From positions 25,847-89,846 of the IMG/VR virus record IMGVR_UViG_3300034417_000014: a stretch of 64,000 nucleotides of DNA; one strand, written 5' to 3'. Origin of the DNA: a virus. The translations under genes and the position numbers were made by a program. Shown piece after piece: positions 4,687 to 50,255 of this stretch. Under the pieces are notes generated by a model, which made no database searches, was not told the DNA's origin, and saw only the letters and a program-made list of their open reading frames with translations. Each line of letters starts with the position of its first letter. Position 1 is the stretch's first letter.

Positions 4687-4742
4687 CATTCCTTTCCACT
4701 TTCGTTATAATGTTTACACACTAAACAAACGGAGTAGTAAAA

Positions 4743-4934
4743 ATGCTAACAGCAGAAGACGGCGCAAAGATGAAAGATCTCAAGGCGCGTGTATTGGCAA
4801 ACAAGCCAGTCTCCGATGTTGAGAAGCAGTGGATCTTGGATAAGCTAAAGCAAGAGAAGTCGCTTGTCAACCCCAAAGTTGTACAAGCTGCGCGCAACAG
4901 TGGCTTCAACGTAGATGGGATACTTGTCAAGTGA
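4743..4934 (+). CDS. small hypothetical early protein
   Basis: Promoter element 4683; GGAG RBS. Confidence 0.8.
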   Translation: MLTAEDGAKMKDLKARVLANKPVSDVEKQWILDKLKQEKSLVNPKVVQAARNSGFNVDGILVK

Positions 4935-5152
4935 AATTACTCGATCCGTTGCTTCCCTTCTTGTCAATACACGGAAACACGTACATTGTCAAGTCTGGCC
5001 ATATTGTTCGGAGCAATGACGTAGACGTTAGCTTCTTTTACGTGGAAGGTCAACAGGTCATTGCATACTTTGAGAACGAGCAGGACGGGGCCTACGAGGA
5101 AGTTATTCACAGTCTAAGCGTAATAAAAGTATTCGAAAGAGTTGACTTTTAG
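4931..5152 (+). CDS. small hypothetical protein
   Basis: GTGA overlap with the previous ORF. Confidence 0.7.
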   Translation: MKLLDPLLPFLSIHGNTYIVKSGHIVRSNDVDVSFFYVEGQQVIAYFENEQDGAYEEVIHSLSVIKVFERVDF

Positions 5153-5854: not shown

Positions 5855-6166
5855 ATGTCAATGGTCAACCCAATCATCGTAGTATTGTGTTCCGTAGCAG
5901 TCCTATTCGTAGTAGGCTACATAGCTGTCCAGGGTGGCGTGAAGGAGTCACTGTGCGCGTTCCTTTGCTTTACAGCAGCAACAGTCACGATCATAACCTA
6001 CAACGCAGGGCACGGGAATCTTGTTGCTATGGGCTTTACAGGGGCGGTGGCGCTGCTCATGGCGTGCATGTGGTCATGGAAAAATCCACTCAACAAGGCA
6101 CTAACCCTCCTCCTAATACTAACAGCACTCTTGAACTCTGTCAACTTTTATCATTTGTTTAAATAG
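5855..6166 (+). CDS. multi-pass membrane protein
   Basis: AAGGAAGG RBS; about four hydrophobic segments. Confidence 0.75.
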   Translation: MSMVNPIIVVLCSVAVLFVVGYIAVQGGVKESLCAFLCFTAATVTIITYNAGHGNLVAMGFTGAVALLMACMWSWKNPLNKALTLLLILTALLNSVNFYHLFK

Positions 6167-6229
6167 TGGTAGACAAGTGGGTGAAAGCCCGCTATAATGT
6201 TTACATACTAAACAAACGGAGTAAAGCAA

Positions 6230-6517
6230 ATGGCTAAGCAAACAATGAAGCACAAAGTTAAAGCATTGTTGGACGAGAACGGCTTGGAATATGGCCGCAA
6301 CAAAGCAGGCGACATTGTAGTGCGCAAGGGCTACTTTTACAAAGGCAACGCTACGCACGAAGCATTGGCAACGCGCATTATGGGAATGTTGACACAGGAA
6401 GGATTACGTGCTACGGTGGTCGAGTCCTACGATCAATGGGCCCCGTTTAACGGCGGGGCAAGCACTGCAAAAAACTCCCACTTCGCAGTTGTACTCCGCG
6501 TAACAGAGGAAGCGTAA
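6230..6517 (+). CDS. hypothetical early protein
   Basis: Promoter element 6170; GGAG RBS. Confidence 0.85.
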   Translation: MAKQTMKHKVKALLDENGLEYGRNKAGDIVVRKGYFYKGNATHEALATRIMGMLTQEGLRATVVESYDQWAPFNGGASTAKNSHFAVVLRVTEEA

Positions 6518-6831
6518 ATAGTGGTAGACAAGCGGGGGAAACCCCGCTATAATGTTTACATACTAAACAAGTGGAGCAAAGCAAATGGCACATACATTTA
6601 CAACTTGGAATGCTTATGTAAACAATCGTAAGATTGACAGCGCGCATTACTTGTCGTCCATGACCAAAGAGGACGTGACCAAAGATATGCAAGTGTGGGC
6701 AGATTATTTCCTCCCTGTCAAGAAGGCATCCAAAATTGTAGTGCGCAAAGCCCGCAAATAGTGGTAGACAAGCGGGGGAAACCCCGCTATAATGTTTACA
6801 TACTAAACAAGTGGAGCAAAGCAAATGGCAC
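6516..6831 (+). repeat. perfect 76 bp direct repeat (6516-6591 and 6756-6831) flanking a 240 bp gene cassette
   Basis: AAATAGTGGTAGACAAGCGGGGGAAACCCCGCTATAATG...GCAAATGGCAC is identical in both copies. Confidence 0.95.
6585..6761 (+). CDS. 58 aa hypothetical early protein (MAHTFTTWNAY...), absent from the ORF track
   Basis: Promoter element 6525; GGAG RBS; TAG stop supplied by the next repeat copy. Confidence 0.8.
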   Translation: MAHTFTTWNAYVNNRKIDSAHYLSSMTKEDVTKDMQVWADYFLPVKKASKIVVRKARK

Positions 6832-7034
6832 GCAACATGTTAACATTGGAAACAGTACACGGCGTAATGTTTTGCAAGCTGGGAGCAAAGCGTCCAACCC
6901 CAGCGCAAGCGGCTACAGCACTGGAACAACTGTCCCCAGTAGTATACGCTAAACAAGTTTTGGGCGTACAGCGGGCAGCAGACAGCACTACAGCAGCGGT
7001 CCTGCGCTACTTGGAAGCAATTAAAAACGGTTAA
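6825..7034 (+). CDS. small hypothetical early protein
   Basis: Promoter element 6765; GGAG RBS. Confidence 0.8.
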   Translation: MARNMLTLETVHGVMFCKLGAKRPTPAQAATALEQLSPVVYAKQVLGVQRAADSTTAAVLRYLEAIKNG

Positions 7035-7113
7035 GAAAGATGCAATAAGTGGTAGACAAACGAAAGTTTACCACTTATAATGTTTACACACTAAAGCAAA
7101 CGAGTAAACAAAT

Positions 7114-7332
7114 ATGTTTCAAATATCCGGCTTTTACTTAGACCAAAAATTGGTTGACTTGTTCGACAAACTCACAGCAGTGCCAAACGTGCAGGCAGGG
7201 CAAGTGGCAGCGGGTATGAACGTGGCGTTGGGACAATTGACCAACTGCCGCACAATCCAAACTGCAAAGGACTTGACTTCTTTTGTAGAGGCAGTTGAAC
7301 ACTTTAAAGAAAACGAAACAGAAAAAGGTTGA
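7114..7332 (+). CDS. small hypothetical early protein
   Basis: Promoter element 7053; stop lies inside the next -35 box. Confidence 0.8.
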   Translation: MFQISGFYLDQKLVDLFDKLTAVPNVQAGQVAAGMNVALGQLTNCRTIQTAKDLTSFVEAVEHFKENETEKG

Positions 7333-7403
7333 CTTACCGAAACACTTCCACTATACTGTTAACACTTAAACAAACAACTTAACTAGCAAACGGAGCAACA
7401 GAA

Positions 7404-7784
7404 ATGAAAAAATTCACAGTAGCGGGTTTTAGCGTTTCCGAGAAAGGCGAACACAAAATGCGTTTTGCCAATCATCCAAACCGTGTACGTGTACTGCACT
7501 ATGCCGGCCACACAGACATCCAACTGTACAAGCTGCCACGCGCAATGGACAAGGACAAAGCTACAGCATGGCTGGAAGCAGGCTCCTACAAAGAGGTTGA
7601 GCAGATTGCATATGCTCCCCGCGCTGAAGCAGCTCCAAAAGAAGCTACACCAAAAACAAAGAAAGTCAAGACATTGACTTTTGAGCAAGCACTTGAACAG
7701 ATCCCATTGCGCGAGAAAGGACGCTTTATTAAGAAGGCAGTGCGCGAGGAAATGGCACGGGAGCTGATGGCAGCACAGGCGTAA
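7404..7784 (+). CDS. conserved hypothetical protein of large T4-like phages
   Basis: FTVAG...KMRFAN...GHTDIQL.KLP..M.K pattern; own promoter and GGAG RBS. Confidence 0.85.
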   Translation: MKKFTVAGFSVSEKGEHKMRFANHPNRVRVLHYAGHTDIQLYKLPRAMDKDKATAWLEAGSYKEVEQIAYAPRAEAAPKEATPKTKKVKTLTFEQALEQIPLREKGRFIKKAVREEMARELMAAQA

Positions 7785-7891
7785 CACAATCCCTCCAACA
7801 GAGCAAGCACTTTAAATAACATAAGGTGCTTGCTCTTTCTTTTCACTTTGCTTATAATACTTACACACAAACAGCAAAGGGAACACAAAAA

Positions 7892-8185
7892 ATGACTACT
7901 TATGTTAAACTTGTTAAATGCAATGTTAGCAGCATTTGGGAAGACATGTGTAGCTGCAACTACAACGAGCTGGGCGAGAGCTATACAGTAGCAACAGACG
8001 AAGACGAGGAAATGGTCTACGCTGACGACGTTGTTGTTGACAAAGTAGTAGAAGCTAGTGTAGTAACTATGATTGGCAGCGCGGGCGGGGAAGTACGCTG
8101 TTTTGAAGAGACGCACAAAGTTTTGCTTGACAAAGACGGAAACGTGTTTATTTTAGAAGACGATTTTGAGGAGTATTTTTGCTAA
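7892..8185 (+). CDS. highly acidic early protein (possible DNA mimic)
   Basis: Promoter element 7830; AAGGGA RBS before ATG 7892; D/E-rich. Confidence 0.8.
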   Translation: MTTYVKLVKCNVSSIWEDMCSCNYNELGESYTVATDEDEEMVYADDVVVDKVVEASVVTMIGSAGGEVRCFEETHKVLLDKDGNVFILEDDFEEYFC

Positions 8186-8262
8186 TAGCGTAACAAAGTG
8201 GTAGACAACAGGGACGTTGTTTGCTATTATGTTTACACACTAAAGCAAACGGAGCAGCGCAA

Positions 8263-8406
8263 ATGAAGATCGAAGCATACGGCGTGAAGGGCATGAAGAG
8301 CAAGCAATGGAGCAAAACCTTTGCAAGTGAAGCAGCAATGGAAGCGTGGTGCGAGAAGAACGATGCGCAAGTCCTGGGCTACAGGGAGGCAGAGCAAAGC
8401 AAGTAA
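8263..8406 (+). CDS. 47 aa early protein (MKIEAYGVKGMKSK...)
   Basis: Promoter element 8202; GGAG RBS before ATG 8263. Confidence 0.8.
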   Translation: MKIEAYGVKGMKSKQWSKTFASEAAMEAWCEKNDAQVLGYREAEQSK

Positions 8407-8465
8407 ATAATGGTAGACTAGCGGGGGAAACCCCGCTATACTGTCTGCACATTAAAGGAGCACAC

Positions 8466-8693
8466 ATGGAAACAAAAGTTAAAGACGTATTAAAAACACT
8501 CATGAAGAACCGTTGCAGTGAACTTTCCAGAACGGTTGACGGCCTTGGCAAAAAGATGCGTGAGGCAAAGAACGATCCTGACAAACTAGCAGAAGTCAAG
8601 CTGTTGTATGCTGAGTACAGGGGCAGGCTAGAAGAAGCAAAGAACGGATATCGTCAACTAGAAACTGCAGAACAATTAGCTAAGAACGGTTGA
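8466..8693 (+). CDS. small coiled-coil early protein
   Basis: Promoter element 8414; AAGGAG RBS before ATG 8466. Confidence 0.8.
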   Translation: METKVKDVLKTLMKNRCSELSRTVDGLGKKMREAKNDPDKLAEVKLLYAEYRGRLEEAKNGYRQLETAEQLAKNG

Positions 8694-8749
8694 CTTCCCA
8701 CTTCCATACCGCTATAATGTTTACACACTAAACAAGCGGAGCAACTAGC

Positions 8750-8938
8750 ATGTCCAACAACGTAGCCAAGCAACTAGCAGATAACAAGATCCCGTTTACT
8801 ACTAAGCGCACAATGAGCAACGGGTTCCACGGCACAGTGTTTTTGTTCCCTACAAGATACGCTGCTGTCAAGGCACAGAAGGTTACTGGCCTCACGTGGA
8901 CACGCTACAACAAAGAGTGGCAGTTTACAACCTATTAA
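8750..8938 (+). CDS. small hypothetical early protein
   Basis: Promoter element 8690; GGAG RBS. Confidence 0.8.
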   Translation: MSNNVAKQLADNKIPFTTKRTMSNGFHGTVFLFPTRYAAVKAQKVTGLTWTRYNKEWQFTTY

Positions 8939-9003
8939 TGTGGTTGACATGTGGAAAGGATTCCACTATAATGTTTACACACTAAGCAACTGAGTACAAG
9001 AAC

Positions 9004-9279
9004 ATGGCAAACCAACTGTGTCAACTAATTGATTTGTTAGGCGTGACATTGACAGACGACAGGATAGGCGTGCATGTTAGAGGTGAGCTAGACATCTACA
9101 TGTTGGTGTTGACAGACAAGGTAGAGTGGCAAGACCCTAATGACCCAACGTGTGGCAACGGTGATGGCTTGCTATACTTCACAGCTAAGGTACAGGCACG
9201 TGACTGGTCAGGCGAGCAGTATGAAGAAACACTCTTATGCGCCTACAGTCAAGAAGAAAACTTCATTTATATTAGTTGA
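9004..9279 (+). CDS. small acidic early protein
   Basis: Promoter element 8944; stop lies inside the next -35 box. Confidence 0.8.
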   Translation: MANQLCQLIDLLGVTLTDDRIGVHVRGELDIYMLVLTDKVEWQDPNDPTCGNGDGLLYFTAKVQARDWSGEQYEETLLCAYSQEENFIYIS

Positions 9280-9336
9280 CATTCCTTTCCACTTCCACTA
9301 TAATGTTTACATACTAAAGCAACGGAGCAAAGCAAA

Positions 9337-9528
9337 ATGGCAAAACTAATTACGTTACTGGTGTGTTTGGTTATGGTCATTGGTGGTGGTGGCTTTTTTG
9401 TACACTACGCTAAGGAGTGGATTGAGAAGTGGAACATGGACACTTGGGTAACTGACGTTGTGGTGCTTGGTTGTGCTGCTAACGTGTTTTTTATGGGCTT
9501 CATCCTCGCATACAGCATCTGCTACTAA
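9337..9528 (+). CDS. small membrane protein
   Basis: Promoter element 9276; two hydrophobic segments. Confidence 0.75.
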   Translation: MAKLITLLVCLVMVIGGGGFFVHYAKEWIEKWNMDTWVTDVVVLGCAANVFFMGFILAYSICY

Positions 9529-9969: not shown

Positions 9970-10520
9970 CTACAGAAACGTTCTAGCCTCCAAGACCAAC
10001 CTACAGAAAAAACCTAACCTCCAAGACCAACCTACAGAAATAGGTTGACGAACCACTTTAGTTCCAGTAGAATGTTTATACAGTAAAGCAAGCGGAGTAA
10101 GGCAAATGGCTAAGTTCAAAGTAGGCGACACAGCATACTTGGGCGCAGGCGGCATTTTAGCTAGAGTGACAGACATACAGGAAGGTTGGTATAGTATGGT
10201 CGCAATGGAAGATGGCCTACGACGGAAGAAGGGAGACGCCTTCCGCTGGGAGATAGTATTGGAAGGCATGATGGTTGCTGAAGATAGATTGCCTAACCAA
10301 CCTACAGAAATAGTCTACAGGAATAACCTGACCAAGTCAACCAACCTACAGAAATAGATTGGAGGTGGAAGATTGTCTGCACAGATTGGTTGGCGAGGTT
10401 GAAATGTGTACACAGATTGGTTGACGACGGAAGAAAGAGCGTGTATATTGATTGGAGGTGGCAGATGACCTGCACAGATATTCTAACCTCCATGCCCGAC
10501 CTGCAGAAATAGATTGACTA
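9970..10520. repeat. CAACCTACAGAAA / GATTGG(A/T) repeat cluster
   Basis: CAACCTACAGAAA near 9997, 10028, 10298 and 10343; variants near 10468 and 10499; GATTGGAGGTGG twice; CACAGATTGGTTG twice. Confidence 0.75.
10106..10357 (+). CDS. small early protein (FKVGD SH3-like start)
   Basis: Promoter element 10045; GGAG RBS; 3' end runs into the repeats. Confidence 0.7.
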   Translation: MAKFKVGDTAYLGAGGILARVTDIQEGWYSMVAMEDGLRRKKGDAFRWEIVLEGMMVAEDRLPNQPTEIVYRNNLTKSTNLQK

Positions 10521-10588
10521 ACCTAGGAACCTTATGCTCTTTGTTTGTGCATTTCCTTTAGCTGCCTAGCTCTACCTACGCTTGCAGC

Positions 10589-10751
10589 ATTTTAACATCT
10601 TTCCTGCGTCCCTGCAACCAACTCCATCAACACCAACTCCATCAACACCATCAACACCAGTCTTCTTCAACCACCAGCTCTAAGAGGGCCACCAACTAGA
10701 GCTAGTTAAAAACTGTTACGCTACTATAACAGCAGCGTAACAGTATTGCAA
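10589..10751 (-). promoter_or_regulatory. two leftward sigma70-like promoters; the upstream one overlaps a terminator-like hairpin
   Basis: TTGCAG(10617-10612)-17-TAAAAT; TTGCAA(10751-10746)-17-TATAGT; 11 bp inverted repeat 10712-10722/10734-10744 followed by a T-run on the minus strand. Confidence 0.6.
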
Positions 10752-10758
10752 GCGTTAT

Positions 10759-11085
10759 TTAAAAGTTATTTAAAGTAGGTTTGCATTGCAAGTGCGCAAA
10801 CTGTACAAAATGTGCTGCATACAGCTCTTTTTGGTCGGCTTCGTCGTGGTGGACGATTGGGCTAAGCACACTACAAACACTAAACACAGTTTCAAACAGT
10901 AGGTCATATTGGTCGCTGGGTAGTTGGTCTATGTACGCTGCAAGTCCCTGGTCGTAGTGCTGCAAGTATTCTACTAGGGAGCGATCGCAAGCCCACCCGT
11001 TAGTAACGACGCTATCCCCTGCTTGCTCCGACATGTTGACAAAGTATACGCTACGTGCTATTGCTACGTTTAACAATGCGTCCAT
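10759..11085 (-). CDS. hypothetical early protein (108 aa, MDALLNV...), the only minus-strand gene in the early region
   Basis: AAGG RBS; own promoter TTGCAT(11193-11188)-16-TATAAT. Confidence 0.75.
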   Translation of the reverse strand: MDALLNVAIARSVYFVNMSEQAGDSVVTNGWACDRSLVEYLQHYDQGLAAYIDQLPSDQYDLLFETVFSVCSVLSPIVHHDEADQKELYAAHFVQFAHLQCKPTLNNF

Positions 11086-11341
11086 TTTTTTGGCCTTTTT
11101 TAAAGTAAAATTAAACAACTTTGTTATACAAAACAGCTAGTTGCTTACTGCTTTGTATGTTGTTTATTATACAGTAATGCAAAAACAATGCAAGCGTTTT
11201 TTTGCATTTTTTTGCATTTATTTTCACTTTTCTAGGGAGGCACGCATAAAAAATAAAGCAAAATAAAGTAAAATAAAACTTGCAATAAAGTGTAAACGCG
11301 CATATAATGTTTACACACAAACAGCAAAGCAGGGCCACAAA

Positions 11342-11512
11342 ATGCAAAACACAAATACGCTTAACATACAAGATTTCCAAATCGACCATTCTAAAGTCGC
11401 CTGCGCGCATAAGCAAGTAACAAAGCAAAAAAGCATTTTGCGCAAAATTATTGCTACGCACTATGCACACATTGCACCTCAATGTCAAGCGTATTTAAAA
11501 ACAATACGTTAA
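11342..11512 (+). CDS. 56 aa basic early protein, paralog of 3499-3663; absent from the ORF track
   Basis: MQNTNTLNIQDFQIDHSK...HYAHIAPQCQAYLKTIR; promoter 11280 and the same leader as 3499. Confidence 0.8.
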   Translation: MQNTNTLNIQDFQIDHSKVACAHKQVTKQKSILRKIIATHYAHIAPQCQAYLKTIR

Positions 11513-11605
11513 AAAATAAAACGCAAGTAGCGTAAAAAACTACTTGCGTTTACACTTTAGTCCCAGTATAATGCTTACACACAAACAGCAAAGCAGGGCC
11601 ACAAA

Positions 11606-12169
11606 ATGCAAAACGCACAACAAGTAGCAAACATTGTAGCAGCTCTTTTAAACAACGTGTCAACTACTTTTGCGCAAGTTAGCTATAGCACAAAAGTTGC
11701 TACAGCAGCAGCGCACAAAGCTGTAAACATACAAAAACACGTTGTCGCTAACGTGCAATTGTTTAGCAATATCAAAGCTGCAACAAGCGTTTTTACTAAT
11801 GCTGTTAAAAAAAGCGCAAGCGCAATTGCAAGCAATAATGCAGAGGACGTAGCACAATTTACTGCGCAAAGCAACTACTTTACACACACAAATTGCTATA
11901 GCATTGTACAGCATAAAACAAACAACAACTTATACTTATATTGCATATACAACAATGTGCAAAGTAGCGTATACACTATTAATAACGTAATTGCAACCAA
12001 ACAGCAAGTTGCGCAATATTTAACAGCAAGTGCAGCAAAAGCTATGCTAGAGCCTAGCACAACTGTACACAACAAAGCAAGCAATATAACGCATAACGTA
12101 ACAGTGCGTACTATTGCACTAAGCAACATTACTAGCATAACTGCAAACAAAGCGCAAGTTAATTTTTAA
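11606..12169 (+). CDS. 187 aa early protein of extreme composition (no Gly or Trp; 1 Asp, 2 Glu, 1 Pro, 1 Arg)
   Basis: Promoter 11544; AGGG RBS; long open frame. Confidence 0.85.
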   Translation: MQNAQQVANIVAALLNNVSTTFAQVSYSTKVATAAAHKAVNIQKHVVANVQLFSNIKAATSVFTNAVKKSASAIASNNAEDVAQFTAQSNYFTHTNCYSIVQHKTNNNLYLYCIYNNVQSSVYTINNVIATKQQVAQYLTASAAKAMLEPSTTVHNKASNITHNVTVRTIALSNITSITANKAQVNF

Positions 12170-12294
12170 CTGTACAAGTGTACAGCACTGTGTATACATA
12201 CAGTGCTGTGCATGTATACAGTAGTGTATGCCTATACAGTGTACGCCCATACAGCACTGTACATGTATACAGCACTGTACATGTATACAGTAGT
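12170..12294. repeat. about 7 imperfect 18 bp palindromic tandem repeats (TACAGCACTGTACATGTA)
   Basis: TACAG recurs every 18 bp (one 15 bp unit); two units identical; internal inverted symmetry. Confidence 0.9.
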
Positions 12295-12515
12295 AGCACG
12301 TAGCACACAGGAGAGGAGCTGTCAACCAGGACCTATGCGTAGCACACCAAAAACAGAAACGCAAGCAAAAAATTAAATTTAATTTGCTTGCAAAGTGGAA
12401 AAAAAGGCATTATAATATTTTTATACTAAAGTGGAGATACGGTGAGACCTGGCTAGAATCCAAAAATGGTGGAATGGCTGGGGGGTAGGCTTGCTGCGCC
12501 ACTGAAAAACCGTTT

Positions 12516-12560
12516 CCTAATCCTATAGGGCCCAATCCTAATCCTAATCCTATAGGCTAC
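12516..12560. repeat. short AATCCT / CCTAATCCTATAGG repeats next to a G6 run
   Basis: cctaatcctatagggcccaatcctaatcctaatcctatagg. Confidence 0.75.
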
Positions 12561-12634
12561 CCTTATAGCATAGCCCTGTGTCAACATTAGACTCACTGTT
12601 CTTGGTACACTGCGAAAATTTTTTACTAATTTTT

Positions 12635-12991
12635 ATGGAAACCGTGTATATGCCTCCTAACGTTAGAATGATCACATTTTATGACAAGTACTCTGAACAA
12701 CTATCAGCCAAACGTCAAGAGGCTAGAAAACTGTTCCCGCTACTGTTATCCTTACATCATATAGCATGGGCGGACCGTCCCCAGTTTCATGAACGTTTCC
12801 GGACGCACTACAGGGAAGCGGTTATTAACATTCCGGAAACTTCTGACAACGCTCCGTTTATACGCTGCAACTCAAAAGAAATTGCCTTTTTACTGTATAT
12901 GCAGTTTGGCGTAGCATTGTGGGAAGACAGTTCCTTAAACGACACGTATACGTCAGACCCCAATAATTATCAGGATGGGTCCAAGCTGTGA
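12635..12991 (+). CDS. hypothetical protein, distant member of the tandem paralog array
   Basis: C-terminal EIAFLLYMQFG resembles the array motif; start uncertain (12578, 12635 or 12650). Confidence 0.65.
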   Translation: METVYMPPNVRMITFYDKYSEQLSAKRQEARKLFPLLLSLHHIAWADRPQFHERFRTHYREAVINIPETSDNAPFIRCNSKEIAFLLYMQFGVALWEDSSLNDTYTSDPNNYQDGSKL

Positions 12992-13284
12992 AAAATTCCG
13001 CGCCACAAACCAGTGTCTATTATTATGTCACTCTCGATGGCTTAAACGACAAAGTGTTAAGAGAATTCAAGAGTTACTTTTTGGGCGTGTCTCCAATAGC
13101 GGCAGCACTAACTGTAAACTGGCAATGGCATTCTCAAGTTGAGGATGAAAATAGATATGTGCGTTATGGGAGAATTACTGTCACTGAATCTGACCGCATG
13201 TTCTTAAATTTGAAGCACGGTCTTAATGACCCTGACTTTACTAAAAAATGTGCGGGCTTACTTTACGAACGGGTGTGGTTATGA
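12988..13284 (+). CDS. tandem paralog 1
   Basis: RYVRYGRITVTESDRMFLNLK. Confidence 0.85.
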   Translation: MKNSAPQTSVYYYVTLDGLNDKVLREFKSYFLGVSPIAAALTVNWQWHSQVEDENRYVRYGRITVTESDRMFLNLKHGLNDPDFTKKCAGLLYERVWL

Positions 13285-13556
13285 AATATTTCTTTCTTAG
13301 GGCTTCTGCTAACTCCAGTAACGATTCTGAAGTGTTGCATTTTATTGAATCTGATATTTCTGGAATTACTCCAATCCATATAGAAATATCTGAAGATAGA
13401 TTCCTATCTTGGACAGAAGGATCTAATACTAGATATATTCGGTATGTTAGACTTACCTTAACTGACACCGACTTTATGTATATGTCTTTAAAAGTTGCGC
13501 AACCCGCTACTTCCCGGATTGTTTCCGGATTGCATTTTAGACCCGTAAGGAAATAA
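13281..13556 (+). CDS. tandem paralog 2
   Basis: ATGA overlap start; RYIRYVRLTLTDTDFMYMSLK. Confidence 0.85.
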   Translation: MKYFFLRASANSSNDSEVLHFIESDISGITPIHIEISEDRFLSWTEGSNTRYIRYVRLTLTDTDFMYMSLKVAQPATSRIVSGLHFRPVRK

Positions 13557-13557
13557 A

Positions 13558-13842
13558 ATGGCCCACGAATATTATGTCCGCTCTTATGTGGCTGATCCCG
13601 ATAATTTAGGAGAAGTGTTTTCCTATAAATTTGTGCAGGAAGTTATTGTGGGCATTGCTCCCCTAAAGATAGAACTGTCTAAGCCCAGGATGTTAACTGC
13701 CCACGGCACCTCCAATACTAGAAAATATGTTCGGTATGTTAAACTTACCTTAACTAACGAAGACTTTATGTTGCTCAAACTTAAAGGTAAGGAATCCGCA
13801 GATGATTTAATAATATTGGATATGGACTATTATGAAATTTGA
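13558..13842 (+). CDS. tandem paralog 3
   Basis: KYVRYVKLTLTNEDFMLLKLK. Confidence 0.85.
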   Translation: MAHEYYVRSYVADPDNLGEVFSYKFVQEVIVGIAPLKIELSKPRMLTAHGTSNTRKYVRYVKLTLTNEDFMLLKLKGKESADDLIILDMDYYEI

Positions 13843-14134
13843 ATCCCAATATTATTATATCCGCATACCATCTCGCATTGCTGAAATTGCTCCAGTTGCA
13901 GCAGTTGCGTTTAAAAAATTTAGTTCCGCCAGATGTGAGATATCCAACGAGTTTTTCCTAGCAATCCGTGATTCCTCTAGTGATGCGGCGTTTGTTAGAT
14001 ATGCCCGCATACTAGTTTCTCCCCAAGAATATATGCTGTTGACTTTGAAGAATGGCATCTGTTATAGTATAGAAAAGCCTAATAGCAATTGTGCTGGAAT
14101 AGAGTATAATGATTATTGTATAGGGGAACTATAA
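13832..14134 (+). CDS. tandem paralog 4
   Basis: FVRYARILVSPQEYMLLTLK. Confidence 0.85.
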   Translation: MKFESQYYYIRIPSRIAEIAPVAAVAFKKFSSARCEISNEFFLAIRDSSSDAAFVRYARILVSPQEYMLLTLKNGICYSIEKPNSNCAGIEYNDYCIGEL

Positions 14135-14449
14135 ATGGATAAGCCAGATCTGAAAACTTTCTGCTTTAGGGTAGTGCAAGCAGTTACTCCAGATCGAGCA
14201 TATCTAGGCAAAGTAGATTGGGTGCCCAAAATTAAAGAAGTATTGGGCGAAGTAGTTCCACTCCAATGTGAGATATCTGAAAAGGAATATAATGTCCTGA
14301 ACCAAGATTGGTCTGCGGGCTTTGCCAGATATGTTAGGTTGGTTGTTTCCGAAACTGATTATATGTTTCTAGTGCTCAAATATACTGACGAATATTCCAA
14401 AACTCCTTTTTATAATGAAGGTATTAGATACCAGAAAGTCGATTTATGA
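14135..14449 (+). CDS. tandem paralog 5
   Basis: FARYVRLVVSETDYMFLVLK. Confidence 0.85.
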   Translation: MDKPDLKTFCFRVVQAVTPDRAYLGKVDWVPKIKEVLGEVVPLQCEISEKEYNVLNQDWSAGFARYVRLVVSETDYMFLVLKYTDEYSKTPFYNEGIRYQKVDL

Positions 14450-14748
14450 AATATTACTATTGCTGTGCTTGGACTGATGTTAGTCCGGATGTCGACTTCC
14501 ATGCCTATGAAAATGTTGTTAATGTATTTATTGACTGCTTTATAGGAGACAATATTAAGCCAATAGCAGTGCAAGTTTCTGCAAAGACTTTTCCGGAAAT
14601 TGGCCGAGATTATAGATTTGCATCTTATATTAAATTTACCTTGACAGACGAAGATTATATGTATGTTAAGTTAAAGAAAGGTGACCCATATGAATCGGCA
14701 ACTGCTGTCCACAGTATGGATTTTATTGACATAGAGATTCTAGAATGA
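14446..14748 (+). CDS. tandem paralog 6
   Basis: FASYIKFTLTDEDYMYVKLK. Confidence 0.85.
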   Translation: MKYYYCCAWTDVSPDVDFHAYENVVNVFIDCFIGDNIKPIAVQVSAKTFPEIGRDYRFASYIKFTLTDEDYMYVKLKKGDPYESATAVHSMDFIDIEILE

Positions 14749-15017
14749 AAGAATATTATTGCCGCATCTCGATACCTGAGCTTAATCCGACTGTGGCCGA
14801 AGTTAAAGCCAAAGTCGAAGAAATTATTGGTCAGATAGAACCAATAACTATCCAGTTGTCCGTGGAGTATTTTTCCGAATGGGATGACCATGCGTATGCA
14901 ATGTATATTAGGTTACTGTTGCAAGATATAGATTATATGCAACTCAAACTTAAACGGGAAGATACTATTAAGTTTGCGCATTCTATTAAAACTTTGCAAT
15001 ACCGGAATTTAGAATGA
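14745..15017 (+). CDS. tandem paralog 7
   Basis: YAMYIRLLLQDIDYMQLKLK. Confidence 0.85.
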   Translation: MKEYYCRISIPELNPTVAEVKAKVEEIIGQIEPITIQLSVEYFSEWDDHAYAMYIRLLLQDIDYMQLKLKREDTIKFAHSIKTLQYRNLE

Positions 15018-15307
15018 CTATTGAATATATTAAGCCATTCCCAGGGCCTAGTCTAGATAAAGTAAGTTGCCAAATGCTTGACTTTTTTGAAGGCATTGCT
15101 TATAAAGAATTGTGGATATCTTATGCTTACCTAGACAACGACTTTAGGCCGTATTATTTTGCAACTGTTGTCCTCCAAGATGAAACTGATCTGTGCCTGT
15201 GCTTAATGAAGTTTGGCAAGGGAGAAAGCAATATGCAGTATACTGAGTTAAAGATAAGTAGAATTGACGAGGCGTGGCTAAAAGAGTACCCGTATGAACG
15301 AACCTAA
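15014..15307 (+). CDS. diverged array member
   Basis: VVLQDETDLCLCLMKFG. Confidence 0.75.
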   Translation: MTIEYIKPFPGPSLDKVSCQMLDFFEGIAYKELWISYAYLDNDFRPYYFATVVLQDETDLCLCLMKFGKGESNMQYTELKISRIDEAWLKEYPYERT

Positions 15308-15566
15308 ATTATATGCAGTGTATGTGTCTAAGGATGATGAAGCATCTTTCCAGATATTTTGTCGCGACAATATTAAATGGCGTACTGTCCATTCGACTAC
15401 TATAAATCCCCAAATGAAAGCTAGGAAGTATATTATAGAATATACCGATGCAGAAGATGCCTTCCTATTAAATTTAAGATATGGGAAGTCCCGTGTTATT
15501 AATGGGGAATTGTTAGATATGCTCAAGAGAAATTATTTCTCTAAAATTGTGTGTACTCGAGACTAA
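15294..15566 (+). CDS. diverged array member
   Basis: IEYTDAEDAFLLNLRYG. Confidence 0.75.
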   Translation: MNEPKLYAVYVSKDDEASFQIFCRDNIKWRTVHSTTINPQMKARKYIIEYTDAEDAFLLNLRYGKSRVINGELLDMLKRNYFSKIVCTRD

Positions 15567-15570
15567 ACTT

Positions 15571-15762
15571 ATGTCTAAAGCTAAAAGGAGATTTGAGATA
15601 CCTACTGTGAAAGAAGAAGAGTTCTCAGAGTATCTCGAGTTGATTTTGCCCAAAGCCAAAGTATATAGATTCTGGGATCCAGGTAAAGATAATATTATGT
15701 ACTATGTCTCAGACGATGACGAGATGGGTTTACTTGCCCTAAGATTAAAATATGACAAATAA
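15571..15762 (+). CDS. diverged array member
   Basis: LPKAKVY...DDDEMGLLALRLKY. Confidence 0.7.
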   Translation: MSKAKRRFEIPTVKEEEFSEYLELILPKAKVYRFWDPGKDNIMYYVSDDDEMGLLALRLKYDK

Positions 15763-15991
15763 TATTATTATGAATTCTTGGAAGCACCGAATGCAGTTTG
15801 TGTTTCCGTTTGGATCTAGTCAGGGTCAGGGCGATGCCATTGCCTTTAACGAGTATGTAAAAGCTACTTTTCCCAAAGCTAAAATTTATTACGACGGCAT
15901 TTTTGAATTTACTGTTGTCATGGATAATGACCATGACGCACTTGTACTAGGTATAAAATATGGACACAGAAAAAAGACTCAGAATTATTAA
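15752..15991 (+). CDS. diverged array member
   Basis: FPKAKIY...DNDHDALVLGIKYG. Confidence 0.75.
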   Translation: MTNNIIMNSWKHRMQFVFPFGSSQGQGDAIAFNEYVKATFPKAKIYYDGIFEFTVVMDNDHDALVLGIKYGHRKKTQNY

Positions 15992-16232
15992 AGTTGAAAC
16001 CAGGAATGAGTATTGGTCTGCGACTGGGTTTCTCCAATCCCTAATAGGGGATGCTGACTATAACTTTGTATTCTCAGACCACTATGAAAGAGAATGCCAA
16101 AAAGAGTCGTATTATATGGTTTCTGGATATCCGCATTCCGACGGCGCTTTAATTATAGTGCAGTCTTCTGACGATGATATTATGGAGCAAATTGACGAAA
16201 GGTTTGATCCTAAACTTCCCAGGTTTCTTTAA
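15960..16232 (+). CDS. small hypothetical protein, paralog of 16232-16498
   Basis: LRIIKV..RNEYW....LQSLIG versus IRIIRA..NAEFW....VQKIIG. Confidence 0.75.
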   Translation: MDTEKRLRIIKVETRNEYWSATGFLQSLIGDADYNFVFSDHYERECQKESYYMVSGYPHSDGALIIVQSSDDDIMEQIDERFDPKLPRFL

Positions 16233-16498
16233 TGAGTATTATAGGTATGTCCCCAAAGAAAGAAGAAATTAGAATTATTAGAGCAGATGGCAATGCTGAG
16301 TTCTGGCAGATTATTGGGAAAGTGCAAAAGATTATCGGTAGTTATCCATGGAAGGAAGCTATGTATTGCATAACTAAATCCCCAGCAGGCCAGACTGAGC
16401 TAGGATTGATTATGGTTATCTCATCTAATAAGAATGTTATATTGGCTGTTGATCTCCAATTTAATAGAATAATATGCCCAAGTAATGAGCTATATTGA
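16232..16498 (+). CDS. small hypothetical protein, paralog of 15960-16232
   Basis: TAATG overlap; shared N- and C-terminal patterns. Confidence 0.75.
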   Translation: MSIIGMSPKKEEIRIIRADGNAEFWQIIGKVQKIIGSYPWKEAMYCITKSPAGQTELGLIMVISSNKNVILAVDLQFNRIICPSNELY

Positions 16499-16516
16499 AA
16501 ACCGCTGGGGCGCGCT

Positions 16517-16549
16517 GAAAGAGAGGTGGTTCCGGCCCACCCCTTTTTC
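16517..16549. terminator. probable bidirectional terminator between convergent genes
   Basis: gaaagagaggtgg...ccacccctttttc imperfect stem with a T-run. Confidence 0.55.
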
Positions 16550-18451
16550 TTATTTCTGTTTGGCTTCTAGTGCTGACAACCTTGCGTCAATTTCTTTTAA
16601 GGCTTCAACAATTAATCCAACCATGTTACCGTATGCAACTGACTTGATTCCGTCTTCATTTTCATGAACGGCTTCAGGCAACACTTTCTCAACATCTTGG
16701 GCGATCAAGCCTGTGCCGCGTGTATTAATGTCTGTACGTGTAAATGTTGCTCCAATTAATTGCTTAACTTTATCAACAGCGTCTGTAATTTGAACAATAT
16801 CTGTTTTAAGGCTTCTGTCAGAGAACGCAGTTACGTCACCACGGGCCCAAAAGTTTCCAGAAACATCAGTAGAAATTCTAACCCCAACTGAGGTATCGTA
16901 TAAGCCTACTGCTCCAGCTGGCTGTCCATAAAAATACACTGTCCTGCCTGACATGTTCCAGCCAAGATCCAGTTCGCCACCCGCAGCATTAAAGAACAGC
17001 GAGCCTTGCATTGTGTCGCCTGACTTTCTAACAAACGCTGACGAATCTAATCCATCTAACAAGTCTGCGTCAAGTCCAGAACCAGATCCATCAGAACTTA
17101 AAATCTTGGACATAATGTCACCAGCACTATATGAGCTTGCTGGTAAGAAATATGAACTATCTCTGCCGTCTAACAAGTCTGCGTCAAGTCCAGAACCAGA
17201 TCCCATATATCCCGAATGCCAAACAACTCTTGCTGCACCAGGATAGTTATATGTGAGCTGTGAGCCATTGCCAACTAACTGTAATGGTTGTGATGCAACA
17301 CCAACATACACTCCACCGGAAGAACCAATGTCTAATACAGTTTCATAAGCAGACGACTGGTTTAGCAAGTTAATCGCTTGAGCATTTAATACACCGCCAG
17401 CAGATAATGTTATTGCACCCGTGCTAAGATTCACGTTCATTAACGATCGTGCGCCGCCGCCACGGTATGAGCTGACCAACGACAATGTCTCGCCAGCAAT
17501 ACCAAACTGCGCAGTGTTGTTCAATGCATCTGTAAATCTAACAACAGGTGTTGTGCCAGTACCATTTGAAACAATTAAGTCTTGCCCTTTAGCATAATAC
17601 TTCGTCGCAAGAGTTGATCCAGCTTCAAATATATTTTGTACATACAAGCTCTTATATTCATTAGCAGCAGAACCCAAGTCATACGTTATGTCTGTTGTTG
17701 GAATTAAGTTCTTGTTAATAGTAATGTTGTTTCCACTTACTGACGACAATGCGTTTGTGTTGGTAGTTGTTGCAGTAATTGCAGTAAATGGTGCAGCAGC
17801 TTTACCAAGAGAAACAGTACCTGACGGAACTATACCAACAGCATCCGATTGAAGGATTGCTGTACCTAAAGTAAGTTGTCCAGATATAGTTGAATTTTGA
17901 GAGTACACATTTGACCAAGCATTACTTGTTCGTCCAAGTGTCTGACTAGCAGTTAATGGATAAAATGCTCCGCCAGTAATTGTTGCATCGCCCGTAACAG
18001 CAAGTGCAATTGTGCCGTCTACGTTTGGACTTTCAATTGTAAATATGCCGTGAGTTGCATATAAGTAGTGCCATCTCTTGAGAGATGATCCTAAATCAAC
18101 TGATGCATCTATAGCTGGAATAACAGGAGTGGATACGTTTTGTAAAGATCCACCAACAGGTTGCCAACCAATAAATGACTCTGATGTGATGTCGTTGGCA
18201 TCAACGGGATCAGCACCTTGGTATTGCATTAGTCTATCGTCGTTTGTGTTATACCAAAGTTGACCTTTAATTGCGCCACGTGGAGGAGTTCCAGATGCGA
18301 AATTCTCCAGCAAACGTAAAGAATCCTGTGCAGCATATGCACCATAATTTTTTACGTTTCGACCACGCAACGACAAACTATATGTTTGATCGAGCGTTAA
18401 ATCTGGAACCGCATGTGTTGCTCCGGAAGATCTTTGAATATTATATGTCAT
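16550..18451 (-). CDS. tail fibre protein with C-terminal intramolecular chaperone (peptidase S74-type)
   Basis: GSGSGLDADLLDG twice; C-terminal SDRSLKTDI...GLIAQDVEKVLPEAV...VAYGNMVGLIVEALKE; N-terminal LENF...KGQLW module. Confidence 0.9.
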   Translation of the reverse strand: MTYNIQRSSGATHAVPDLTLDQTYSLSLRGRNVKNYGAYAAQDSLRLLENFASGTPPRGAIKGQLWYNTNDDRLMQYQGADPVDANDITSESFIGWQPVGGSLQNVSTPVIPAIDASVDLGSSLKRWHYLYATHGIFTIESPNVDGTIALAVTGDATITGGAFYPLTASQTLGRTSNAWSNVYSQNSTISGQLTLGTAILQSDAVGIVPSGTVSLGKAAAPFTAITATTTNTNALSSVSGNNITINKNLIPTTDITYDLGSAANEYKSLYVQNIFEAGSTLATKYYAKGQDLIVSNGTGTTPVVRFTDALNNTAQFGIAGETLSLVSSYRGGGARSLMNVNLSTGAITLSAGGVLNAQAINLLNQSSAYETVLDIGSSGGVYVGVASQPLQLVGNGSQLTYNYPGAARVVWHSGYMGSGSGLDADLLDGRDSSYFLPASSYSAGDIMSKILSSDGSGSGLDADLLDGLDSSAFVRKSGDTMQGSLFFNAAGGELDLGWNMSGRTVYFYGQPAGAVGLYDTSVGVRISTDVSGNFWARGDVTAFSDRSLKTDIVQITDAVDKVKQLIGATFTRTDINTRGTGLIAQDVEKVLPEAVHENEDGIKSVAYGNMVGLIVEALKEIDARLSALEAKQK

Positions 18452-18885
18452 TTGTTATCCTGTAGAAAATCTGGTTTCTCTGGTAGTTGCACATCTGGGA
18501 AACCTGGCTCGTTTGTGATGTTTCTTAATTCTTTTCTGTATGATTGCAAGTCTGCAAACTGTGTTGCTGACAAAGTTGTTTTTGCCTTTTCTTCTTTTTC
18601 ATCCCGGTGCCTAGCAACTAAGCCATCAGTTTTTGCTAATAAAATGTCTCTCTGATCTCTTAACACCACTGCTTTCATTTCAGTAGGTAACACAGCTTCT
18701 TTTCTGCCATCTACTAGCACTGCTTCGCCGTCAACAATACTTAATCTTTTATCTTTAGATATTGCTACAATTGCTTCTTGATGAAACTCTTCTGTGATCT
18801 CAACTGCGTCGTCAGGCATCTTGTCAACTGGCGTTATCGCGTCAAGATAAAATCCGTATTGTTCTTCGCTAAAATAGATTTTCAT
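18448..18885 (-). CDS. tail fibre assembly chaperone (Tfa-like)
   Basis: IYFS...GFY start; RD.LL..TD...YRKELR.IT..PGFP.V.LP.KP end. Confidence 0.85.
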   Translation of the reverse strand: MKIYFSEEQYGFYLDAITPVDKMPDDAVEITEEFHQEAIVAISKDKRLSIVDGEAVLVDGRKEAVLPTEMKAVVLRDQRDILLAKTDGLVARHRDEKEEKAKTTLSATQFADLQSYRKELRNITNEPGFPDVQLPEKPDFLQDNK

Positions 18886-20804: not shown

Positions 20805-20812
20805 GTATTATC

Positions 20813-21229: not shown

Positions 21230-21232
21230 ATT

Positions 21233-49798: not shown

Positions 49799-49806
49799 AT
49801 ATCACT

Positions 49807-50220: not shown

Positions 50221-50227
50221 AGTCAAG

Positions 50228-50255
50228 AAAAAAGGCGCCTGATGTGCGCCTTTTT
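50228..50255. terminator. bidirectional intrinsic terminator
   Basis: aaaaaaggcgc-ctgatgt-gcgccttttt. Confidence 0.8.

Follow-up and report, generated by a model that had tools for sequence, protein, structure and literature searches.

In a genome fragment of what appears to be a jumbo phage (a window of 64,000 nucleotides, positions 25,847 to 89,846 of the IMG/VR record IMGVR_UViG_3300034417_000014), an island of about 1.3 kb is strongly depleted of four dinucleotides, GA, GG, TC and CC, that is, of G-purine and pyrimidine-C steps (GR/YC) read on either strand, hereafter forbidden steps. The ban on GR/YC is symmetric between the strands, depends on position and is conserved among related viral contigs, and it reaches into the composition of the encoded proteins. 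The lineage's own guanine modification is our tentative candidate for the agent that reads the banned steps. The features of the island and its surroundings are collected in Table 1.

Table 1. Features in and around the island (window positions; a dot marks a feature given without a strand)
Feature	Position	Strand	Observation
Acidic cassette, TC/CC purged on the message strand only	3756-3944	+	TC 0, CC 1, GA 16, GG 5
Second message-strand-only cassette	7892-8185		TC 1, CC 0, GA 28, GG 14
Weakly depleted gene pointing backward, at the island's graded edge	10759-11118	-	+ strand GA 7 vs TC 15, GG 16, CC 12
Island depleted in GR/YC	11000-12290	.	53 forbidden steps in 1291 nt (4.1 per 100)
Sigma-70-like promoter TTGCAA-17-TATAAT, first cassette	11280-11308	+	0 forbidden steps in the surrounding 80 nt
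51-nt module with -10 box, leader and start codons (ATGCAAAAC)	11303-11353	+	direct repeat
ORF P0002, 56 aa, partly purged	11342-11512	+	12 forbidden steps in 171 nt
Terminator-like hairpin between the two cassettes, T runs on either side	11519-11551	.	13 pairs, from the - strand scan
Sigma-70-like promoter TTGCGT-17-TATAAT, second cassette	11544-11572	+	3 forbidden steps in 80 nt
ORF P0001, 187 aa, widespread unnamed family, 15-letter amino-acid alphabet	11606-12169	+	10 forbidden steps in 564 nt
Array with 18-bp period, five perfect CTGT-N8-ACAG boxes, long inverted repeats	12170-12294	.	
Final TTGCAA-17-TATAAT promoter ahead of the composition switch	12388-12416	+	
Right-hand boundary predicted for the long direct terminal repeat: TACGGTGAGACC, then a G6 run	12438-12490	.	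predicted to within about 50 bp
CCTAATCCTATAGG repeats just past the predicted repeat boundary	12517-12565	.	

A dinucleotide count over 11101-12300 gives GA 6 (odds 0.08), TC 13 (0.22), GG 8 (0.27) and CC 13 (0.26), with the GC step over-represented (2.78); elsewhere in the genome, the GR/YC odds are normal, about 0.9-1.0. The hand count in the preliminary description, about 6 GA and 13 TC, is thus reproduced by program, as is its statement that 11881-12300 holds one GA, no TC and no GG (the same stretch has CC 5). A sliding-window scan shows the island as the single outlier of the 89.8-kb contig. Over the whole 89,846 bp, GA+TC per 600-bp window averages 63.3 (sd 11.5) and GG+CC 44.1 (sd 10.0); both fall to their minimum of 6 at 11655, the lowest windows all lie between ~10,600 and ~12,700, and the island is the sole region with a density of forbidden steps below 35% of the median (about 18 per 100 nt in the remaining contig). 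The core spans 11101-12290, with a graded left edge and an abrupt right edge. Non-coding DNA is purged as well, with 9 forbidden steps in the 241 nt of 11101-11341 and 3 in the 131 nt of 12170-12300, against 25 in the adjoining 160 nt.

The depletion could have been a by-product of composition, in which case it would vanish once composition is controlled for, but it persists in both of the codon controls applied to P0001. With codon composition held and codon order shuffled 1000 times, 26.2 (sd 3.2) forbidden steps are expected at codon junctions; 2 are observed, and none of the 1000 shuffles is that low. When codons are instead drawn anew from late-gene usage for the unchanged protein, a total of 45.8 (sd 5.1) forbidden steps is expected, against 10 observed. 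The protein itself contains no Gly, no Trp, one Asp, two Glu and one Pro, the very counts given in the preliminary description. The claim made there that the avoidance reshapes promoters as well as protein composition is likewise borne out: the proposed replacement of TTGACA by TTGCAA or TTGCGT is seen at 11280 and 12388 (TTGCAA) and at 11544 (TTGCGT).

The cassettes of the island share further elements. A second copy of the 51-nt module ATGCAAAAC lies at 11567-11617, the two copies being 96% identical, and the sole GG/CC in the module's leader is CAGGGCC, inside which is an RBS-like AGGG. The sequencing run that best holds the sequence is a sediment metagenome. Other contigs from the source run join the cassettes differently, with recombination via the shared promoter modules. 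The CTGT-N8-ACAG boxes of the array downstream of P0001 have the pattern of the LexA (SOS) operator box and may serve as such operators; the contig contains 8 such boxes vs 1.2 expected, 5 of them in the array at 12170-12294 and one at contig base 13. No promoter overlaps the boxes of the array, the closest -35 element being the one at 12388, and an Rfam search yielded no gathering-score match, the array merely resembling long hairpins. Inward antisense transcription across the island was considered and rejected because no convincing minus-strand promoter is found to its right.

P0001 represents a family with 349 relatives at E<=0.01, to which a cluster look-up attaches no names. A scan of bacterial and archaeal genomes yields one 3.4-kb MAG contig, and neither megablast of 10500-13000 nor tblastn of P0001 against 50,697 phage records gives a match. 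Pfam and PHROGs assign no family to P0001, P0002, their neighbours, the normal-composition homologues or the other island ORFs, one of these searches giving sub-threshold matches only. A sequence profile search of the PDB returns one chance-level match (E 0.63), and the ESM Atlas returns no usable match, its own model of P0101 being poor (pLDDT 0.37).

In related viral contigs, the ban can be complete. A family gene of ~500 bp in L002, L003, L009 and L010 lacks GA, TC, GG and CC altogether, and the longest forbidden-free runs reach 786, 783, 703 and 676 bp, compared with a maximum of 47-70 bp in island-free relatives. Of 65 distinct family genes from metagenomes, 10 have no forbidden step and 23 have 1-5; in restricted members, 0-4 forbidden steps are found at codon junctions vs 26-53 expected, and 0 of 1000 codon-order shuffles are that low. 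When 74 distinct family genes are pooled and the 37 with <=5 forbidden steps are taken as the restricted set, this set has 3 junction GR steps vs 632 expected and 4 junction YC steps vs 514 expected. Family genes of intermediate composition are also depleted equally on both sides (GR/YC 0.09 and 0.10; 0.40 and 0.34). The codon controls and this pooled symmetry agree with the original proposal that selection acts on the DNA itself, with GR/YC avoided on both strands. In the acidic genes of L004, GA and GG occur only within D/E/G codons (36 within-codon GR steps, 35 D/E/G/P/W residues), and GR at codon junctions amounts to 1, 0 and 2 observed vs 13.4, 11.0 and 16.4 expected, with YC 0. A comparison of homologues, which the preliminary description had suggested as a check, finds that the usage of D, E, G and P is normal in the non-restricted members of the family.

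Where a purge occurs is set by position and not by gene family. This is apparent from L011, where the family gene is of normal composition (87 forbidden steps), yet the last cassette before the composition switch is free of forbidden steps (runs of 386 and 178 bp). Exactly one island is present in 6 of 6 island-bearing contigs scanned in full, and at most one in every contig scanned; island length varies from 0.6 to 8.5 kb. An 18-member family tree, mostly unresolved and flagged for composition bias, groups L001, L002 and L005, placing near and partial purges among close kin.

Sequence similarity and gene order place the contig, a genome fragment, with the PA5oct-like jumbo myoviruses. Among cultured phages, PA5oct is its closest relative, with a major capsid protein that is 80% identical and a collinear structural module, and the contig is collinear with 42-90 kb of PA5oct, with coordinates that agree to about 400 bp. 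The PA5oct record annotates a terminal repeat at 1-39,080, and the PA5oct paper describes a repeat of 39,080 bp whose 105 genes include many early ones. The motif TTCGGTG begins 17-18 nt ahead of both mapped repeat boundaries of PA5oct, and CTATAGG clusters after both of these boundaries as well as after the islands of L008 and L009; the contig and PA5oct have in common a boundary architecture of a G run followed by CTATAGG repeats. Because the contig is collinear with the phage in which this 39-kb repeat was mapped, the island probably occupies the final ~1.4 kb of a long direct terminal repeat of the PA5oct type, which would set its position next to an end of the virion DNA, with one copy expected to lie about 170 bp from that end. 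The preliminary description had considered a location near a genome end, and synteny suggests that this is probably so. The mean depths of the contigs left of 11.6 kb are 16.6-21.5 vs 11.4 for the contig spanning 11585-17084, contig means that agree only weakly with a doubled repeat, and the distances from the gene to the contig end show no pile-up among 80 metagenome loci. The repeat end of PA5oct itself is undepleted (37-57 forbidden steps per 250 bp). Unlike the island, the forbidden-free runs of PA5oct are promoter-sized only: there are four, of 141-217 bp, over TTGCAA-type promoter arrays close to 239, 265, 267 and 277 kb.

As for what reads the banned steps, the island is plausibly an unmodifiable stretch in a G-modified genome, with the lineage's own guanine modification as the reader, an interpretation that we prefer with less than even confidence. 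Selection keeps the island free of the G-purine step, read on either strand, and enforces the ban site by site in promoters, leaders, coding sequence and terminators, so that the encoded proteins have to do without Asp, Glu, Gly, Pro and Trp. The likeliest mark would be of the 7-deazaguanine type, at GA and/or GG as proposed for PA5oct, for which a recent preprint deduces from restriction digests that guanine is modified where it precedes A and/or G, and names QueE and QueD genes (bioRxiv 10.1101/2025.03.31.646159). The banned set, GA and GG with their complements, equals this modification context. DpdA-type 7-deazaguanine modification is also reported at GA and GGC in phage CAjan (PMC7544227) and at GA in phage iggy (PMC10484667); the banned set of G before A or G equals the reported target context of the DpdA systems (CAjan, iggy and PA5oct). 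Unlike these phages, the island phage is linked to guanine modification by its motif match, no modification gene having been found on its contig. A word search of the available text of the CAjan and iggy papers (PMC7544227, PMC10484667) found no description of a motif-free zone, and the PA5oct passages contain none.

If guanine modification is the reader, the island would be the sole stretch of the virion DNA that is not modifiable on either strand, and its strongly promoted cassettes would look like ordinary DNA. Modification-dependent nucleases of the END or type IV kind would be given no site, and host proteins would meet no modified base while the DNA end is in the cell. According to the same preprint, modification-dependent END nucleases act early, sense hypermodified bases and are countered by early phage proteins such as the inhibitor PA5oct gp52 (bioRxiv 10.1101/2025.03.31.646159). 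The END nucleases and their phage inhibitors offer a plausible selective agent; a profile search with the island proteins at E<=1, however, returns nothing from PA5oct. The preliminary description had listed among its options a gap in a phage base modification that allows the host RNA polymerase to read the first genes. The gap is the best-supported idea, given the matching motif in the PA5oct passages, but the purpose lacks support as a general rule: 23 of the 34 sigma-70-like promoters of the early region are of the TTGA type and hence contain GA, so that a modified G would be no general bar to the host polymerase, and the purge is symmetric, extending beyond the template strand.

The gene content bears on guanine modification in several ways. 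The PA5oct record includes a GTP cyclohydrolase and two QueD-like genes at 168-172 kb, outside the part covered by the contig (0-90 kb). No FolE, QueD or TGT-like genes are found on the contig or on seven island-bearing fragments (G000-G004, G008, G009) that are 11-45% complete, nor are QueE or QueC found on the 89.8-kb contig, which by CheckV's estimate lacks about 75% of its genome; one of the fragments, G003, retains the RNR-to-ligase block without modification genes. The PF01702 (TGT) model has no match in G000 and the contigs of 8 relatives and also misses PA5oct. Since both the Pfam TGT and the Radical_SAM models miss PA5oct's own genes, the absence of modification genes is weak evidence. 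Among six genomes or contigs with FolE and QueD scanned in full, five lack an island (PA5oct, Vibrio phage 2.275.O, G007, G010 and G011), and G005, which also encodes FolE and QueD, has short forbidden-free runs only. The co-occurrence of these genes does not support a simple link with the island. Palindromic 6-mers with and without GR are equally depleted in 11 of 11 genomes or contigs; among palindromic 4-mers, G009 (non-GR sites avoided) and G006 (GATC and GGCC avoided) alone hint in the direction expected of GR modification.

Two observations do not fit readily. GR does occur in the final ~165 bp leading up to the predicted end (25 forbidden steps in 160 nt). Furthermore, the cassettes at 3756-3944 and 7892-8185, for which the earlier tally of 0-1 TC each is matched by a recount of 0 and 1, are purged on the message strand only, and GR is kept at the codon junctions of 7826-8185 (12 observed vs 13.7 expected), so that a purely symmetric reader provides no explanation there.

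A bolder version of the modification scenario, which we consider rather unlikely, makes the island a programmed blank in a hypermodified chromosome, located at the first-entering end of the repeat in the manner of a T5-type first-step leader, with cassettes whose products would inactivate modification-dependent nucleases ahead of the entry of the modified remainder of the genome. The first-step-transfer DNA of T5 and BF23 is the terminal repeat and avoids a recognition motif (PMC10644984), and in Marinomonas Autographiviridae, the leading region decides the sensitivity to a Type I R-M system (PMC12455610). As in T5/BF23 and the Marinomonas phages, small, strongly promoted genes in a terminal or early location lack the reader's word, and the remaining genome keeps it; as in T5/BF23 and the T7-like leading regions, the island has fewer copies of a defined word than the remaining genome, beyond the effect of composition. 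In contrast to T5/BF23-type avoidance, the word here is a dinucleotide class, GR/YC, rather than a site of 4-8 bp, its avoidance is all but complete across 0.6-8.5 kb, and proteins are rewritten in 15 amino acids. The purged stretch of T5/BF23 is the whole long terminal repeat and enters first; here, the last part of the repeat alone is purged, in a probably subterminal position. Hiding from many restriction systems at once, another option put forward in the preliminary description, lacks support in so general a form: 4-bp palindromes made of allowed steps are plentiful in the islands (TGCA 314 and GCGC 203 in 19.4 kb; observed/expected 0.72-1.09). A literature search, together with word searches in the CAjan and iggy papers, turned up no printed description of dinucleotide-free islands.

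The reader could instead belong to the host or to a competing element and act on unmodified dsDNA at GR/YC on the entering end, with no involvement of phage modification; we judge this unlikely but worth serious attention. Candidates include a nuclease, a nickase, a TC/CC-directed cytosine deaminase and a DNA ADP-ribosyltransferase, the last two being kinds that the preliminary description had also raised, and the purge would let the cassettes survive to expression. The symmetric, site-by-site nature of the ban and the probable subterminal position of the island are consistent with such a reader, as are the lack of modification genes on the island-bearing fragments and of islands in most FolE+QueD genomes. 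However, no defence system is known to us that targets a bare GR or YC dinucleotide, nor did a literature search turn one up; the remaining genome, being normal in GR/YC, would stay exposed; and the exact match with the motif deduced for PA5oct would be a coincidence.

A constraint at the RNA level, by which the earliest messages would be maximally expressed, is in our view distinctly improbable. Without UC and CC, such messages would offer Rho no grip at primary sites and would not pair with the purine-rich ribosome-binding site, and without GA and GG, they would have no internal Shine-Dalgarno-like sites; a variant invokes a dinucleotide-specific RNase. The two message-strand-only cassettes, with cheap GR kept in 7826-8185, point this way, as does the location of the leader's sole GG within the RBS-like AGGG, and a published study reports Rho-avoidance selection on coding strands (PMC13323073). 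Yet the family gene loses GR and YC to the same degree and gives up D, E and G residues for it, which Rho avoidance does not predict, and the base composition of the island, with more C (246) than G (190), favours Rho. The -35 boxes and the DNA upstream of promoters are purged too, and the backward-pointing gene at the left edge, with 6 GR steps at codon junctions vs 12.5 expected, has the mirror pattern on the same DNA. The leader in L002 lacks GG and GA entirely, so the ban is not built around the Shine-Dalgarno site. The Rho-avoiding bias, as described there, is strand-specific, statistical, purine-rich and C-poor (PMC13323073). It resembles the present case in that nucleotide selection overrides the choice of codons and amino acids to protect expression, and it could bear on the two message-strand-only cassettes; unlike it, the ban in the island is symmetric and near-absolute, and the DNA has an excess of C over G and no such purine bias.

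We hold it highly improbable that the island is a PAM desert, in which the removal of CC/GG and TC/GA from both strands would block the acquisition of spacers from the first-entering DNA end. CRISPR adaptation samples the free DNA end most, and known PAMs include CC/GG (type I-F, NGG), TTC (type I-C and I-B) and AAG/CTT (type I-E). The subterminal position and a ban that is strand-blind and without exceptions are compatible with this possibility, but it would require at least two unrelated systems in every host to account for both halves of the ban. Moreover, the ban on ATC, GTC and CTC is no laxer than that on TTC, AAG/CTT abounds in the sequence examined, and the remaining genome keeps its PAMs. 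Finally, a mutational footprint of repeated TC/CC deamination of terminal DNA, or the import of cassettes from a donor of like composition, accommodates the graded left edge and the recombination of cassettes through shared promoter modules but is scarcely credible, given that the G+C content of purged genes is not below that of their flanks (e.g., 0.42 vs 0.39 in L002), the GC step is about threefold enriched, the family proteins are 60-78% identical over hundreds of clusters, which implies purifying selection, and no genome of such composition throughout is found among the contigs scanned.

That conserved natural proteins manage without Asp, Glu, Gly, Pro and Trp, since four dinucleotides are barred from their DNA, is a remarkable instance of selection on DNA prevailing over selection on protein, and such proteins constitute a ready-made natural experiment on reduced amino-acid alphabets. 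The ban further reveals, straight from metagenomes, which sequence an as yet unseen DNA reader recognises; should this reader be the guanine modification, both modification motifs and the liabilities of modified DNA would be inferable from sequence alone. The probable subterminal position links the effect to DNA entry or to the handling of DNA ends in jumbo phages that carry long terminal repeats, a little-known area, and the cassettes of the island are prime candidates for very early counter-defence genes. If the island were indeed a programmed blank, its price would be working proteins written in a 15-letter amino-acid alphabet.

The ban on GA, GG, TC and CC (G followed by a purine, GR, and the same step read on the other strand, YC) is real, extreme and conserved, and its cause is selection on the DNA. 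In window 11101-12300, the dinucleotide counts are GA 6, TC 13, GG 8 and CC 13, with odds ratios of 0.08-0.27 and a 2.8-fold enrichment of the GC step; 11881-12300 contains one GA, no TC and no GG. The recount agrees with the hand counts of the preliminary description in both intervals and with the residue depletion that it reported for the 187-aa protein encoded there (0 Gly, 0 Trp, 1 Asp, 2 Glu, 1 Pro). The non-coding DNA within this island is depleted in forbidden steps as well. Across the 89,846-bp contig, GA+TC averages 63.3 per 600-bp window (sd 11.5) and is lowest, at 6, at window 11655, which is also the minimum for GG+CC; no second stretch in the whole-contig scan approaches this level. 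No Rfam family explains any portion of the stretch.

When the ORF's own codons are retained and their order is shuffled 1000 times, 26.2 (sd 3.2) forbidden steps are expected at codon junctions versus 2 observed, and none of the shuffles is as low. When the protein is retained and the codons are redrawn from the phage late-gene usage, the expectation is 45.8 forbidden steps, and 10 are seen. Among 74 distinct family genes pooled, the 37 near-clean ones have 3 junction GR (632 expected) and 4 junction YC (514 expected), and the intermediate genes have lost the two equally. In the 8.5-kb island of L004, an IMG/VR locus carrying a relative of the gene, acidic proteins retain GA and GG solely within Asp, Glu and Gly codons, and the cheap junction sites are absent on either strand. 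Given the equal loss of GR and YC and the clearing of cheap sites on both strands, the reader of the GR step treats both strands alike and exacts a per-site cost. The depletion thus persists in the codon-shuffled control that the preliminary description had proposed, and its claim that selection acts on the DNA itself, on both strands, is borne out by the codon controls and the symmetric junction loss. Two of the L004 proteins (4641-5054 and 6490-6906) are very acidic paralogues of 137-138 aa that show this codon restriction and match no PHROGs family.

At E<=0.01, 349 relatives of the 187-aa protein were found, with identities typically of 60-78%; no Pfam domain was assigned to any of them, and their names are uninformative. 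Among 120 aligned relatives, 12 lack D, E, G, P and W altogether and 51 have one or two such residues; a minority have 12-29, exactly at positions of Q, N, A or S in the others. At the nucleotide level, 19 relatives from IMG/VR (L001-L019) were compared: the ~500-bp gene contains zero GA, TC, GG and CC in L002, L003, L009 and L010, 2-4 forbidden steps in L004, L006, L007 and L014, and 13-16 in L001 and L008, is partly depleted in L005 and L013, and is near normal in L011, L012 and L015-L019. The longest forbidden-free runs among the relatives are 786, 783, 703 and 676 bp, compared with just 47-70 bp in relatives' contigs without an island. A second sample, the best 80 of 122 metagenome loci, yields 65 distinct gene sequences, with no forbidden steps in 10, 1-5 in 23, 6-20 in 10, 21-50 in 7 and more than 50 in 15. 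Our literature searches found no printed description of such dinucleotide-free islands. In L002 (8970-11450), nearly all residual forbidden steps within the island lie between cassettes in short G/C hairpins of the TATAGAGGGAC type, which resemble the CTATAGG(G/T)(A/C)CC word at the repeat boundaries of PA5oct, a Pseudomonas jumbo phage.

The purge depends on position and not on the gene. The L011 family gene is of normal composition, and the restricted alphabet is found instead in an unrelated ORF, the final cassette ahead of the composition switch. Exactly one island occurs in each of the six island-bearing contigs that were scanned over their full length (the source contig G000, G001, G002, G003, G004 and G009); that of G008 is truncated by the contig start. 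The islands range from ~0.6 kb (L011) to ~8.5 kb (L004/G002) and are typically graded on the left and abrupt on the right; here, 12170-12300 holds 3 forbidden steps versus 25 in the following 160 nt.

Elements of the island and of the predicted boundary to its right (window positions)
Feature	Position	Remarks
TTGC-type sigma-70-like promoters	11280 and 11544	one for each of two tandem cassettes
51-nt module		-10 box, leader and start; common to both cassettes
First ORF		56 codons
Hairpin		between the two cassettes
Second ORF	11606-12169	187 codons
Array of five perfect CTGT-N8-ACAG boxes	12170-12294	18-bp period; directly after the purged 187-aa gene
TACGGTGAGACC	12438-12449	
G6 run	12480	
CCTAATCCTATAGG repeats	from 12517	

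The virus is represented by a single contig of 89,846 bp (CheckV completeness 25%), of which the window covers bases 25,847-89,846. Its products include a T4-type portal, major head protein and head protease, baseplate parts and a 3766-aa protein, together with a late sigma factor and SbcCD-like nuclease subunits. The closest cultured relative is PA5oct (NC_071039.1), whose major capsid protein shares 80% identity with the one encoded here. The 42-90 kb portion of the contig is collinear with PA5oct, with coordinates agreeing within about 400 bp (giant protein gene, 49,818-61,118 here versus 49,627-61,200 in the PA5oct annotation; capsid gene start, 85,992 versus 85,850). According to the PA5oct paper and the record annotation, the direct terminal repeat of this phage measures 39,080 bp and contains 105 genes, many highly transcribed early. 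Past the PA5oct boundary comes a run of closely spaced small genes, then leftward structural genes, an arrangement repeated here beyond window ~12,580. The two PA5oct boundaries each have a TTCGGTG that begins 17-18 nt ahead of the cut, followed by CTATAGG repeats 32-40 nt beyond it; L008, L009 and L004 have the same order of boundary elements directly after their islands. From collinearity, common gene order and boundary elements, the right end of the repeat probably lies near window 12,455 (+/- about 50 bp), so that the island would fall within its last ~1.4 kb, with about 170 bp separating one island copy from an end of the virion DNA. In the likely source run, depths of 16.6-21.5 for contigs left of 11.6 kb and of 11.4 for the one that covers 11585-17084 are weakly consistent with such an end, and contig ends across the best 80 of 122 metagenome loci show no pile-up. 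The subterminal position of the island is probable, and it is new information.

CTGT-N8-ACAG, which we take to be the LexA-operator pattern, occurs 8 times in the contig versus 1.2 expected; these boxes may serve as marks of the two repeat boundaries and not in SOS control. Besides the five in the array, a sixth box lies at contig base 13, outside the window and close to the left end of the contig. Over window 6000-9400, the cassettes are joined in different orders on further contigs of the likely source run, with skips and back-steps of 0.2-2.4 kb at shared promoter modules, which suggests cassette shuffling among co-existing strains. Three tail-fibre-like paralogues (633, 639 and 643 aa; window 16550-23164, minus strand) all match one PA5oct distal tail-fibre gene over ~300 residues.

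The best candidate for the reader of the step, tentatively held, is the phage's own GR-context guanine modification. For PA5oct, a preprint concludes that G is modified in a GA and/or GG motif, exactly the set banned in the island, and names QueE- and QueD-like genes (bioRxiv 10.1101/2025.03.31.646159); the PA5oct record contains one GTP cyclohydrolase and two QueD-like genes at 168-172 kb, and a comparative study assigns this phage a deazaguanine synthesis/incorporation system. The DpdA contexts on record are GA and GGC for CAjan (PMC7544227) and GA for iggy (PMC10484667), so DpdA enzymes are able to have GA/GG-type contexts. The PA5oct genome scan finds no island; four forbidden-free runs of 141-217 bp (about 60 bp expected by chance, a rough estimate), near 239.3, 265.0, 267.3 and 277.1 kb, cover tandem TTGCAA-N17-TATAAT promoters and show the ban, in weak form, in a cultured phage. 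Motif match, genes, DpdA contexts and promoter runs together make guanine modification the leading candidate.

Counted against guanine modification is the presence of GA in 23 of 34 early promoters. FolE, QueD and TGT-like genes are found neither on this contig nor on any of the seven island-bearing fragments (11-45% complete), a search in which PA5oct's own genes also escape the Pfam TGT and Radical_SAM models; the PA5oct modification genes fall beyond the portion covered by this contig, and G003 has the RNR-to-ligase block without such genes. Five of the six FolE+QueD genomes or contigs scanned in full lack an island (PA5oct, Vibrio phage 2.275.O, G007, G010 and the complete G011), and the sixth, G005, has short runs only. 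In the near-complete G006, modification genes and an island are both absent and the family gene has normal composition, a single case that fits the hypothesis. A rival is a host-side reader of double-stranded DNA at GR/YC.

Another rival is a constraint at the RNA level. In two acidic cassettes at 3756-3944 and 7892-8185, 4-8.5 kb away from the predicted boundary, the purge is limited to the message strand, with 0-1 TC, as the preliminary description had it, 0-1 CC and plentiful GA and GG; in 7826-8185, junction GR is retained (12 observed versus 13.7 expected). The symmetric reader does not explain these cassettes, and there may be a strand-specific layer, with Rho (PMC13323073) or translation as candidates. 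PAM avoidance is a further rival. The earlier proposal of stealth against many restriction systems finds no support as a general explanation: 4-bp restriction-type palindromes built of allowed steps are common within the islands. In the 123 kb of G009, the contig of L009, that lie outside its island, 4-bp palindromes without GR are strongly avoided (AATT 0.36, CTAG 0.39, CATG 0.53, GTAC 0.56, ACGT 0.58), and those containing GR are near expectation (0.78-1.03).

If guanine modification is the reader, the island would be DNA with no modifiable site on either strand. Asp, Glu and Gly are sacrificed to clear the non-template strand too, a symmetry that argues against a pure template-reading explanation. 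According to the PA5oct preprint (bioRxiv 10.1101/2025.03.31.646159), END nucleases sense hypermodified DNA early in infection, and PA5oct encodes an inhibitor. The symmetry would fit a sensor, e.g., a modification-dependent nuclease, that responds to modified bases whichever strand carries them.
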